From a virus (lineage: Duplodnaviria; Heunggongvirae; Uroviricota; Caudoviricetes): DNA of 40,224 nucleotides. The stretch lies in the IMG/VR virus record IMGVR_UViG_2734482777_000019; one strand, written 5' to 3'. Below are positions 32,146-35,072 of this stretch, one piece after another. Made by a program: the position numbers and the translations under genes. Each line of letters opens with the position of its first letter. Position 1 is the first letter of the stretch. Below the pieces are notes generated by a model. The model made no database searches. It worked only from the letters and a program-made list of their open reading frames with translations, and was not told the DNA's origin.

Positions 32146-32188
32146 CCCGCATTTCGGCAGGAATGAGGACCATGACTGTTAAAGAGCG
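32146..32188 (-). promoter_or_regulatory. nutR candidate (boxA cgctctttaaca; boxB hairpin cctgccgaaatgcggg)
   Basis: rrn-like boxA followed by a hairpin whose core gccgaaatgcggga is repeated in the nutL position. Confidence 0.55.
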
Positions 32189-32195
32189 GTGTTAC

Positions 32196-32396
32196 TTATG
32201 CAGTTGTTTTTTTGTTGCTTGGGAAGGGCTTTATTTCTTCCGCATAAACGCTTCCATCAGCGTTTATAGTTAAAAAAATCTTTCGGCCTGCATGAATGGC
32301 CTTGTTGATCGCGCTTTGATATACGCCGAGATCTTTAGCCGTCTTGGTTTGACCAAAGCGCATTGCATAATCTTTCAGGGTTATGCGTTGTTCCAT
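32196..32396 (-). CDS. cro: Cro repressor
   Basis: 66 aa [66 protein letters not shown], near-identical to lambda Cro. Confidence 0.97.
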
Positions 32397-32422
32397 ACAA
32401 CCTCCTTAGTACATGCAATCAT

Positions 32423-32486
32423 TATCACCGCTAGAGGTAAAATAGTCAACACGCACGGTGTTAGATATTTATCCCTTGCGGTGATA
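32423..32486. promoter_or_regulatory. Right operator OR1-OR2-OR3 with divergent PR/PRM promoters (lambda type)
   Basis: OR1 tatcaccgctagaggta (32423-32439), OR2 caacacgcacggtgtta (32447-32463), OR3 tatcccttgcggtgata (32470-32486). Confidence 0.9.
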
Positions 32487-32496
32487 GATTTAACGT

Positions 32497-33210
32497 ATGA
32501 GCGCAAAAAAGAAACCGTTAACACAAGAGCAGCTTGAGGACGCACGTCGCCTTAAAGCTATTTATGAAAAAAAGAAAAATGAGCTTGGCTTATCTCAGGA
32601 ATCTGTCGCAGACAAGATGGGGATGGGGCAGTCAGGTGTTGGAGCTTTATTTAATGGCGTCAATGCATTAAATGCTTATAACGCTGCATTGCTTGCAAAA
32701 ATTCTCAACGTTAGCGTTGAAGAATTTAGCCCTTCAATCGCCAGAGAAATCTACGAGATGTATGAAGCGGTTAGTATGCAGCCATCACTCAGAAGTGAGT
32801 ATGAGTACCCTGTTTTTTCTCATGTTCAGGCCGGGATGTTCTCGCCTGAGCTTAGAACCTTTACCAAAGGTGATGCGGAGAGATGGGTAAGCACAACCAA
32901 AAAAGCCAGTGATTCTGCATTCTGGCTTGAGGTTGAAGGTAATTCCATGACCGCACCAACAGGTTCCAAGCCAAGCTTTCCTGACGGGATGTTAATTCTT
33001 GTTGACCCTGAGCAGGCTGTTGAGCCCGGCGATTTCTGCATAGCCAGACTTGGTGGTGATGAATTTACCTTCAAGAAACTGATCAGGGATAGCGGTCATG
33101 TGTTTTTACAACCACTAAACCCACAGTACCCAATGATCCCATGCAATGAGAGTTGTTCCGTTGTGGGGAAAGTTATCGCCAGCCAGTGGCCTGAAGAGAC
33201 GTTTGGATGA
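32497..33210 (+). CDS. cI: CI repressor (lambda immunity)
   Basis: 237 aa, essentially identical to lambda CI. Confidence 0.97.
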
Positions 33211-33241
33211 TTCAACGCAGCAAAAAAGGGTAATTCAATTA

Positions 33242-34114
33242 ATGGAACATGATGATTTACAGCAATTACCATCCCCATTCGCAAAATGGAAGGGGAAGAT
33301 CGACTTAGGTGGTGAAAGTATTGATTGCTATGTGCTTGACACTGGACATCGTGTTATAGCTTTGCGAGCAACTGTAAAAGCAATTGCCAATGCGGAGTCA
33401 GGAGACCTGGCTAAATTTATTGGCGTTAGCTCACTTAATGGCTTTATAGACAAAGACTTAGTCCTGGCCGAACTCATAGAGTTTTCCATACCAGGAACCC
33501 AATTTAAAAGCCAAGGACTTAAGACTGAGCAATTTGAATTGATTTGTCGCGGCTATGTACAGGCGCTATACAAAGGCGCGCCATTGACAGATAGACAGCG
33601 AGAAATAGCAATTAAATGTGCTGTATTAACAGCAGGTTTAACCAGGACTGGGTTAGATGCTCTAATTGATGAGGCTACTGGGTATCAGTATGAGCGCGCA
33701 GAGGATGCTCTCCAAGTAAAACTCAGGGCGTTCATCGCTGAGGAACTAAGAGCATGGGAAAAAACATTTCCTGATGAGTTATGGGAAGAATTTGGTAGAT
33801 TGACAGGATGGAGTACCCCATTGCAATCAAGGCCCAAATGGTGGGGGAAATTAGTTATAGAGTTAATTTATGACACTCTTGACGAAGATGTGGCTAAATA
33901 TCTTAAAGAAAACAAGCCTGCGGCAGGAGTTCACTGGCATAGACAGTTAACCGAGAACCTAGGTGTAAGGCAGCTTGTATCAAGGTGCTGGGAGGTTATT
34001 GGGGTCGCAAAAACATGCGACACCATGCATGAGCTAAGAAGTCGAGTTGCTCAACACTATGGAAAGAAACCTGTTCAAATGACAATGTATTTACCGGAAA
34101 AAGAAATTAAATAA
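33242..34114 (+). CDS. Hypothetical protein in the rexAB-equivalent position downstream of cI (candidate lysogen-expressed exclusion/defence gene)
   Basis: 290-aa product from Met 31 nt after the cI stop; no resemblance to RexA/RexB; AT-rich relative to cI; followed by an intrinsic terminator before OL/PL. Confidence 0.65.
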   Translation: MEHDDLQQLPSPFAKWKGKIDLGGESIDCYVLDTGHRVIALRATVKAIANAESGDLAKFIGVSSLNGFIDKDLVLAELIEFSIPGTQFKSQGLKTEQFELICRGYVQALYKGAPLTDRQREIAIKCAVLTAGLTRTGLDALIDEATGYQYERAEDALQVKLRAFIAEELRAWEKTFPDELWEEFGRLTGWSTPLQSRPKWWGKLVIELIYDTLDEDVAKYLKENKPAAGVHWHRQLTENLGVRQLVSRCWEVIGVAKTCDTMHELRSRVAQHYGKKPVQMTMYLPEKEIK

Positions 34115-34121
34115 TATACAA

Positions 34122-34147
34122 CCCGGCCTCAGCGCCGGGTTTTCTTT
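34122..34147 (+). terminator. Intrinsic terminator closing the cI operon (timm-equivalent)
   Basis: cccggc-ctcagc-gccggg hairpin followed by TTTTCTTT. Confidence 0.65.
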
Positions 34148-34302
34148 GCCTCACGATCGCCCCACCTAAAAACACATAACCAATTGTATTTATTTTAAAA
34201 TTAATAGATACAACTCACTAAACATCGCAATTCAGTTCTCTCGATCACCTTCCCAATCCACACAACCCTGCAAAAAATAAATCTATATAAAAAACATACA
34301 GA

Positions 34303-34366
34303 TAACCATCTGCGGTGATAAATTATCTCTGGCGGTGTTGACACGCATACCACTAGCGGTGATACT
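34303..34366. promoter_or_regulatory. Left operator OL1-OL3 and promoter PL (lambda type)
   Basis: tatctctggcggtgTTGACA...taccactagcggtGATACTaaacacatcagcaggacgc matches lambda PL/OL. Confidence 0.88.
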
Positions 34367-34412
34367 AAACACATCAGCAGGACGCTGGTAGCCAAACGGA
34401 ACAGATTGGCAG

Positions 34413-34452
34413 GCTCTTTAACATTGATGGGATTGTCCCGCCGAAATGCGGG
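34413..34452 (+). promoter_or_regulatory. nutL candidate (boxA gctctttaaca; boxB hairpin cccgccgaaatgcggg)
   Basis: boxA-like element ~40 nt downstream of the PL start followed by a 5-bp stem hairpin sharing gccgaaatgcggga with the nutR candidate. Confidence 0.55.
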
Positions 34453-34766
34453 AACCAAAGAGTAGTTGGCTTTGGGGTGACGTGAAGTGCAGCTGCACGA
34501 CGGCAACCGGAAGATAAGCACCCGGCGCGTCACCGCCAAAGTCAATTCCATAGGCGTTATGCAGCCGCCACCATATTCAAGAAAGCTGCACAAGAGGTAG
34601 GAGGATTTATGTGAATACTTACATTCAATTGAGAGATTAATTAAATAGAACTGATCGAGCAGAGTCCATAAAGGCTCATAAATGCTCTTCCATCCCCGTC
34701 TAATTGGCGGGGAAGGAAACCACTTTGTAATAAAAAAATTCCAAAGTTGTTTCATCGGAGGTCAAC

Positions 34767-35072
34767 ATGACAGTAGTCATTACATATCTGGCTGACGATA
34801 ACGCCAGAAATCGCCGCAGAGCACGCAGACAGGCTCAACGTGAACAGGCAATGCAAGAACAGCGACTGGCGCGAAAGATTGCGCTAAAGCTCTCTGGTTG
34901 CGTCAGAGCAGACAAAGCAGCATCACTCGGAAGCCTTCGCTGCAAGAAGGTAGTAGAAGTCGAGCGTAAACAGAACCGTATTTACTACCGGAAGCCACGG
35001 AGTGAAATGGGTGTGACTTGCTCAGGCCGCCAGAAGCAACGCGGAAAATCAATTCCAGCTTATTACGATTGA
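34767..35072 (+). CDS. N: Antiterminator N (phage 21-like body with divergent N-terminal arginine-rich motif)
   Basis: 101 aa; N-terminal ARM DNARNRRRARRQAQREQ; central and C-terminal segments (ARKIALKLSGCVRADKAASLGSLRCKK...KQNRIYYRKPRSEMGVTCSGRQKQRGKSIP) resemble phage 21 N and the lambda N C-terminus. Confidence 0.88.
   Translation: MTVVITYLADDNARNRRRARRQAQREQAMQEQRLARKIALKLSGCVRADKAASLGSLRCKKVVEVERKQNRIYYRKPRSEMGVTCSGRQKQRGKSIPAYYD

Follow-up and report, generated by a model that had tools for sequence, protein, structure and literature searches.

A CUS-3-like temperate phage with a probable lambda-type immunity-cassette exchange and an HK620-type N/nut module

We analyzed the immunity region of the viral record IMGVR_UViG_2734482777_000019 from IMG/VR, a 40,224-nucleotide (nt) stretch of tailed-phage DNA (hereafter the window), with emphasis on its antiterminator gene N and the associated RNA sites nutL and nutR. 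At a probability of about 0.85, the window represents a CUS-3-like, P22-family temperate phage or prophage of Escherichia, in which a single cassette at positions 32202-34371 has been swapped for a lambda-type version. N, nutL and nutR are native to the CUS-3-like backbone, whereas the foreign part is the cassette comprising cro, OR, cI, an accessory gene, tIMM and OL/pL. A first-pass annotation, made from the letters alone, had framed the region as a lambda-type immunity region that carries a foreign N and a novel boxB hairpin. Our comparisons invert that framing: a CUS-3-like phage kept its own N and nut sites, and its cro-cI-OL cassette was replaced. The N/boxB pair is also already on record, having been annotated as putative in the phage HK620 entry in 2001, and the window is thus an ordinary, if instructive, lambdoid mosaic.

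A CUS-3-like backbone with a lambda-type repressor cassette

Direct comparison with CUS-3 (CP000711), a P22-family prophage of K1 E. coli, revealed collinearity on both sides of the cassette. Identity reaches 98.3% over 30406-32201, a segment spanning O, cII, tR1 and nutR through its boxA, and 97.9% over 34372-35035, which covers the start of the pL transcript, nutL, the entire leader and N; the intervening 32202-34371 of the window is without any match in CUS-3. Thus, the two genomes are about 98% collinear for O, P, cII, tR1, nutR, nutL, the leader with its insertion, and N, but differ in that CUS-3 has its own cro, operators and a 216-aa P22-c2-like repressor at the place taken in the window by the lambda-type cro-cI-OL cassette and a P63C-domain gene. 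The relationship extends into the remainder of the genome. For positions 1-25000, CUS-3 is the best match, with matches over 1-24152 at 95% identity that cover 59% of the 25-kb query and include the tailspike, portal, terminase and DNA-transfer genes. Rfam (RF00262, 65.6 bits) placed a P22-type sar antisense RNA of the immI region at 6208-6274, and the P22-type virion and immI genes, together with the genome synteny, identify the window as a P22-family (Lederbergvirus-like) phage.

The cassette itself compares closely with lambda (J02459, our reference for all lambda segment identities; the + strand of the window is the direction of lambda leftward transcription). Its first gene, cro (32196-32396, - strand), is 96.5% identical at the nucleotide level, with V55I as the sole amino acid change. 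It is followed by OR1-OR3 with pR and pRM (32421-32486; 98% identical), the 237-aa cI repressor (32497-33210, + strand; 96.5% identical, with the four changes T3A, I55V, K71N and Q201H), and, beyond the accessory gene, the tIMM-OL segment (87.5% identical), in which OL3, OL2, OL1 and pL occupy 34304-34366 (+ strand). Operator comparison showed that four of the six operators (OR2, OR3, OL2 and OL3) match lambda exactly, while OR1 (32423-32439) and OL1 (34348-34364) each have a single mismatch. Both substitutions fall at the equivalent position, changing the lambda sequence TACCxCTGGCGGTGATA to TACCxCTAGCGGTGATA when read in the same orientation. The OL1 substitution is also present in SfI, though not in the OL1 of CL707. 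A promoter consensus scan recovered both pL (TTGACA-17-GATACT) and pR (TTGACT-17-GATAAT). With cI, cro and all six operators of lambda sequence, the window falls in the lambda immunity group, and these identities suggest that the phage would be homoimmune with lambda. The same components are 95-98% identical in lambda and the wild imm-lambda phages SfI, CL707, HK97, mEp234, HK106 and HK542, which also share a variable accessory slot after cI.

Downstream of cro, the 97-aa product of the lambda-type cII (31793-32086, - strand, recovered from the open reading frame list) has only two amino acid changes relative to lambda, with 96.6% nucleotide identity. Judging from its collinearity with CUS-3, which already has this lambda-type cII beside the same nutR, the gene belongs to the CUS-3 backbone and was not imported along with cI.

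Boundaries of the exchanged cassette

The left junction corresponds to CATCAGCAGGACGC (34372-34385, + strand), the first 14 nt of the pL transcript, located between OL1 and nutL, where the first-pass annotation had correctly placed a breakpoint. This sequence is invariant in lambda, HK620, CUS-3, phage 21, P22 and an imm-lambda E. coli prophage. Immediately past it, lambda continues with ACTGACCACC, whereas the window, HK620, CUS-3, phage 21 and P22 all continue with TGG(T/A)AGCCAAACGG. A second breakpoint, which had gone unseen along with the P22-family character of the rest of the genome, lies at the cro stop codon and the 5' edge of the nutR boxA (~32188-32201). Here, the nutR segment is 98% HK620-type as against 65% lambda-like, while the flanking cII and cro are both about 96.5% identical to lambda. 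The intergenic stretch between cII and cro (32089-32195) begins with an HK620-type, cII-proximal tR1 spacer (32089-32144, - strand) that is 100% identical to HK620 and N7 and 73% to lambda; tR1 is annotated at this location in the HK620 record.

The exchange would have proceeded by recombination at two short sequences shared among lambdoid phages, namely CATCAGCAGGACGC and the cro-stop/boxA edge of nutR. With both crossovers falling just inside the nut sites, the recipient would have retained its own N-nutL-nutR module, including tR1, and an island of ~100 bp around nutR survives between the lambda-type cII and the lambda-type cro. The boundaries approximate those of the classical imm434 substitution in lambda. 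The window therefore offers a clean natural example of how a lambdoid immunity cassette can be exchanged without breaking the match of N to its RNA sites.

The nut sites and the N protein

The hairpin core of the two nut sites, the 14-nt GCCGAAATGCGGGA, occurs in exactly two copies with 0 mismatches, at 34440-34453 (+) and 32145-32158 (-), and no further site was detected in the window at ≤2 mismatches. Likewise, the 11-nt boxA, GCTCTTTAACA, has exactly two copies, at 34413-34423 (+) and 32177-32187 (-), so that the shared boxA and identical hairpin core proposed for nutL and nutR are both confirmed. At each site, the strand read from pL or pR has its boxA on the 5' side of the hairpin. The sites themselves, nutL (34412-34453, + strand) and nutR (32145-32187, - strand), are located in the pL-N and cro-cII intervals, respectively, which is the arrangement expected of an N/nut system, and their positions agree with those at which nut sites are annotated in HK620, phage 21, P22 and CL707.

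RNA folding recovered a stem capped by the hexaloop CGAAAU at both sites. The nutL hairpin (34436-34453) has a 6-bp UCCCGC/GCGGGA stem (-10.5 kcal/mol, z -3.1), and the nutR hairpin, AUUCCUGC-CGAAAU-GCGGGAAU, extends out to 32143-32164 as an 8-bp stem including one G.U pair (-10.3 kcal/mol, z -4.2). That G.U pair results from a window-specific C-to-U substitution that preserves pairing, as all 70 related loci with the same nutR have C at this position. Using the annotated records of lambda, P22 and phage 21 for comparison, we found that the window boxB differs from those of lambda (GCCCUGAAGAAGGGC at nutL, GCCCUGAAAAAGGGC at nutR), P22 (GCGCUGACAAAGCGC and CCGCCGACAACGCGG) and phage 21 (UCUCAACCUAACCGUUGAGA and UCACCUCUAACCGGGUGA), as had been proposed; the further suggestion that it is novel did not survive comparison with HK620.

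Downstream of pL and nutL, N (34767-35072, + strand) encodes a 101-aa protein with an arginine-rich motif (ARM), NARNRRRARRQAQ, at residues 12-24. Sequence searches classified it as phrog_271, 'anti-termination protein N-like' (E 5e-36), and a comparison with the antitermination-complex structure (PDB 6GOV chain N) aligned its residues 62-98 to the C-terminal part of lambda N (E 4.4e-6). Over residues 37-97, it is 85% identical to phage 21 N, and these three lines of homology together identify it as a lambda-type N. The ARM is distinct, reading NRRRARRQAQREQ in the window as against SRYKARRAELIAERR in phage 21, and alignment with the N proteins of lambda, phage 21 and P22 matched no characterized N over this motif; both the phage-21-like body and the separate ARM noted at the outset are thereby upheld, as is the juxtaposition of lambda-type immunity with a non-lambda N. 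The protein is itself a mosaic: residues 1-64, with the ARM, are HK620-type, the middle is common to phage 21, and the C-terminus is of the N7/SfI type, ending in a segment (QKQRGKSIPAYYD) that SfI and N7 share and that matches the C-terminal part of lambda N. SfI was considered as a possible case of lambda immunity plus this N and rejected, as it has the lambda ARM and lambda boxB and shares only the N C-terminus.

Earlier record and distribution of the HK620-type module

In the GenBank record of HK620 (AF335538), two sites are annotated beside the same ARM, one as 'nutL; putative N-utilization leftward' and the other as 'nutR; putative N-utilization rightward'. The HK620 nutL is identical base for base to 34412-34453 of the window, and its nutR differs by 1 nt, with U in the window for C. 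We accordingly define the HK620-type module by the ARM MTVVITYLADDNARNRRRARRQAQ together with the boxB YCCCGCCGAAAUGCGGGA at the nut sites, a combination found in the window at both sites (1 nt off at nutR). In addition to the identical nutL from boxA to the end of boxB and the identical ARM, the window and HK620 share residues 1-64 of N at 95% identity and the entire tR1 spacer. They differ in the C-terminal third of N, which is H-19B/P22-like in HK620 but phage-21/N7-type in the window, in their immunity regions, and in a 205-nt leader insertion that HK620 lacks and that the window shares with CUS-3.

The hairpins are conserved in related phages, and the N/boxB pair is also present in CUS-3, HK140, mEp213, HK630, N7, HF4s and 68 IMG/VR loci. 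A tblastn search of 50,697 phage records with the window N recovered full-length matches at 97% identity in N7 and HF4s and at 91% in CUS-3, IME10 and Gally, while its first 64 residues matched at 95-98% in HK140, mEp213, HK620, HK630, ECP1 and several Stx phages. Scanning genome contigs yielded seven loci, mostly from Escherichia or contaminated metagenome-assembled genomes, which confirmed the phage-21 type and provided no new host for this ARM. RefSeq prophage copies of this N are labeled 'hypothetical protein' by the NCBI Prokaryotic Genome Annotation Pipeline (PGAP), which represents an annotation gap.

Co-occurrence of ARM and boxB, and separability from immunity

We scanned IMG/VR with N, retrieving 80 loci, and counted pairings in those with intact upstream DNA. 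All 68 intact loci with the HK620-type ARM (NRRRARRQAQ) carry the CGAAAU boxB at nutL, and 67 of them carry it at nutR too; the exception, locus L018, has just 160 nt of DNA upstream of N. Similarly, all 10 loci with the phage-21 ARM (SRYKARRAELIAERR) have CUAAC[C/U] at nutL and CUAAC[C/A] at nutR. No crossed ARM/boxB combination was observed among these loci. The pairing is informative because the N body (from about residue 34), boxA and most of the leader are common to both groups, such that only the ARM and the hairpin differ. Locus L048, which has this N without a nutL, was examined as a possible exception and rejected as a rearranged remnant.

Beyond these loci, the P22 type follows the same pattern. 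The prophage of E. coli EC416 (L090, 2600-3212) combines lambda cI, cro and OL with an N that has a P22 ARM and a phage-21-like C-terminus, and its boxB is P22-type at both nutL (GCGCUGACAAAGCGC) and nutR (CCGCCGACAACGCGG). ARM and boxB therefore co-vary across the HK620, phage-21 and P22 types. About 15 complete E. coli genomes also have the EC416-type junction, with 84-86% identity to the query.

Lambda immunity is accordingly found with three N/nut types: the lambda type in SfI and CL707, the P22 type in EC416, and the HK620 type in the window. Conversely, the HK620-type pair accompanies at least five repressor families, represented by 33, 26, 5, 3 and 1 loci. With three N/nut types under one immunity and at least five repressor families beside one N/nut pair, the natural mosaics already demonstrate what had been offered as a prediction, namely that the pair is separable from lambda immunity.

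A more distant homolog of N was recovered in Izhakiella australiensis (L098, ~3340-3800), where the ARM reads GNSKSRYKERRKAQQ and a canonical boxA is followed by a different candidate boxB, CCGCUCUCACAGGCGG; it possibly represents a further specificity type.

Predicted mechanism, specificity and alternative explanations

By homology with lambda, P22 and phage 21, the module would operate through lambda-type processive antitermination. The pL and pR transcripts would carry boxA (GCUCUUUAACA), to be bound by NusB/NusE, while the N-terminal ARM (NARNRRRARRQAQ) would bind the boxB hairpin through its CGAAAU hexaloop. The phage-21-like middle and lambda-like C-terminus of N are predicted to engage NusA and RNA polymerase, allowing the polymerase to read through the tR1 and tL terminators. 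Both this function and its specificity are proposed on the basis of homology and the co-occurrence described above.

Several points weigh against reading the window as a CUS-3-like phage that received a lambda cassette and retained a working N/nut module of its own. The direction of exchange (lambda cassette into CUS-3-like phage) follows from the P22-family remainder of the genome and not from phylogeny. When nutR is folded in its full 61-nt context, the minimum-free-energy structure is an alternative one and not the boxB hairpin, and since boxB is invariant in ~140 copies across loci, compensatory covariation is unavailable as proof of the hairpin. As for the protein, the Pfam N_peptide match falls below the gathering cut-off (17.7 vs 27.9 bits), and no NCBIfam model matches N. 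Finally, we found no experimental study of HK620-type N/boxB function or RNA-binding specificity in the searchable full-text literature.

For the loop, we propose a true GAAA tetraloop of the GNRA kind, closed by a non-canonical C.U pair and with no looped-out base, because the C-GAAA-U layout parallels C-UAAC-C of phage 21 and C-GACAA-C of the P22 nutR. In the phage 21 boxB CUAACC (PDB 1NYB), a GNRA-like tetraloop is enclosed by a non-canonical pair between the two flanking C residues, and in P22, a His and an Arg are reported to make contact with the looped-out C (PMC12550061). Phage 21 and the window are nearly identical in the pL leader, in boxA and in part of the spacer, and both boxB hexaloops have pyrimidine flanks; they differ in the loop itself (CUAACC vs CGAAAU) and in the ARM. 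With the P22 gp24/boxB complex (PDB 1A4T), the window N aligns at the N-terminal MTV(V)ITY and at the NA[KR]xRR motif, and the P22 nutR (CCGC-C-GACAA-C-GCGG) shares its stem and flanking C with the window (CCGC-C-GAAA-U-GCGG). Unlike P22, however, the window lacks the looped-out C of GACAA, and its residues at the P22 contact positions H20 and R24 are R18 and Q22; together with the replacement of lambda W18 by A28, these substitutions are consistent with a loop that has no looped-out base. On this basis, the HK620-type ARM/boxB might join those of lambda, P22 and phage 21 as a fourth N-boxB specificity class that is functionally orthogonal, with a C.U-closed GAAA tetraloop, a proposal to which we give slightly less than even odds. 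If true, the pair could be used as one more orthogonal tag for RNA tethering and would provide a natural test case for the recognition of GNRA folds by ARM peptides.

A competing explanation, which we consider unlikely but deserving of some weight, holds that the HK620-type pair is not a separate class but cross-reacts with lambda or P22 components, with its genomic pairing reflecting linkage and not selection. The ARM core RRRxRR and its flanks do resemble those of lambda (AQTRRRERRAEKQAQW against ARNRRRARRQAQREQA; 7 of 16 positions identical) and P22 (AKTRRHERRRKLAIER; 5 of 16), the GAAA of the loop is a GNRA sequence resembling the folds of lambda and P22 boxB, and the stem CCGC/GCGG with its flanking C is that of the P22 nutR. 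Against this explanation stands the ~100-bp HK620-type nutR island, which has been kept between lambda-type neighbors in the window, in all four other IMG/VR imm-lambda loci and in the E. coli genome WS4437A-1. Moreover, the imm-lambda prophage of EC416 matches its P22-type ARM with P22-type boxB at both nut sites, and the very residues W18 of lambda and H20 and R24 of P22 are those replaced in the window N.

Far less probable is the view that a new specificity pair arose when a lambda-like phage acquired a foreign N together with a boxB not known before. It was suggested by the lambda-type cI, cro, cII and operators beside a non-lambda N, and could draw on the finding that none of the 50,697 phage records spans lambda OL and this nutL. 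It is contradicted by the CUS-3-like, P22-family sequence outside 32202-34371 and by the annotation of the nut/N pair in HK620 and its recurrence in many phages and in the 68 IMG/VR loci. Furthermore, the same junction of lambda OL with this nutL, although rare, is present in 4 of 5,426 complete E. coli genomes at 98.8-99.6% identity (WS4437A-1, Br_190_kylling, S51 and GPEC349-628) and in four IMG/VR loci (L015, L032, L049 and L059); in WS4437A-1, the N has five amino acid differences, and the leader insertion differs from that of the window. The idea that the hairpins are not N-binding sites but chance repeats, terminators or RNase sites carried with flanking DNA, for which one might cite the invariance of boxB and the occurrence of at least two GCCGAAATGCGGGA matches (≤2 mismatches) in 4 of 100 shuffled controls, is barely credible given two exact 14-mers that each lie 3' of an exact boxA, on the correct strands and at the annotated nut positions of lambda, P22, phage 21 and HK620, with no T-run 3' of either hairpin and with a joint switch of hairpins and ARM in the phage-21-type relatives, which otherwise have the same flanks.

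Accessory gene, N leader and other features

Within the exchanged cassette, the position of lambda rexA/rexB is occupied by a gene for a 290-aa P63C-domain protein (33242-34114, + strand; alternative start 33146), which was identified by Pfam (P63C, E 2.3e-22) and belongs to phrog_2384 (function unknown). It received neither a PADLOC defense-system assignment nor an NCBIfam match. An identical protein is encoded at the same position in E. coli WS4437A-1, while the gene in the rex position of CL707 was compared as a potential relative and rejected as unrelated. We regard the P63C gene as a candidate lysogen-expressed accessory or exclusion gene. It is followed by a tIMM-like terminator hairpin (34120-34141, + strand), detected by a terminator scan within the lambda-like segment. 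The window also differs from lambda, SfI and CL707 in the N/nut type, as these three combine the lambda ARM with a GAAGA/GAAAA boxB and the window has the HK620-type pair.

The N leader spans 400 nt (34367-34766, + strand) and folds strongly (34460-34790; -103.7 kcal/mol, z -4.25). Beyond nutL, it contains a long helix at 34465-34546 (+ strand), in which GGCUUUGGGGUGACG pairs with CGUCACCGCCAAAGUC; this element is kept in HK620, N7 and CUS-3, with 98-99% identity to HK620 and N7. The lambda N leader has a comparable element for RNase III-type processing or translational control, and the 34465-34546 helix could serve in the same way. Adjacent to it, just upstream of the N Shine-Dalgarno sequence, lies the 205-nt insertion (34548-34752, + strand) relative to HK620 and N7. 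CUS-3 has this insertion at 100% identity and HK140 at 73%, and the rest of the 50,697 phage records lack it. The insertion holds an AGGAGG (34599-34604) followed by ATG-TGA (34609-34614), a minimal start-stop open reading frame, as well as a hairpin of the form CCCCG...CGGGG at ~34693-34711. Rfam searches, run with gathering thresholds on the whole window and in E-value mode on 31700-35300 and on the WS4437A-1 locus (L091), returned no family over the nut sites or the leader insertions and only weak chance matches.

Across the 80 loci (L007-L086), the stretch from the nutL boxB to the start of N is an insertion hot spot, with boxA-to-ATG distances of 148, 183, 235, ~354, 372, 399, ~441 and ~603 nt. 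In WS4437A-1 (L091, 3160-3420), a different insert of ~250 nt directly follows boxB and contains many hairpins with GUAAUG and GAAA loops; it looks like structured RNA and has no Rfam match.

Elsewhere in the window, the minus strand carries two tRNA genes, for Thr (tgt) and for Asn (gtt), at 23402-23557, near the late/lysis region. The O-like replication gene (30548-31495) contains repeat units of CATGTGCGG at 30930-31075, which give rise to His-rich protein repeats and are probably origin iterons.

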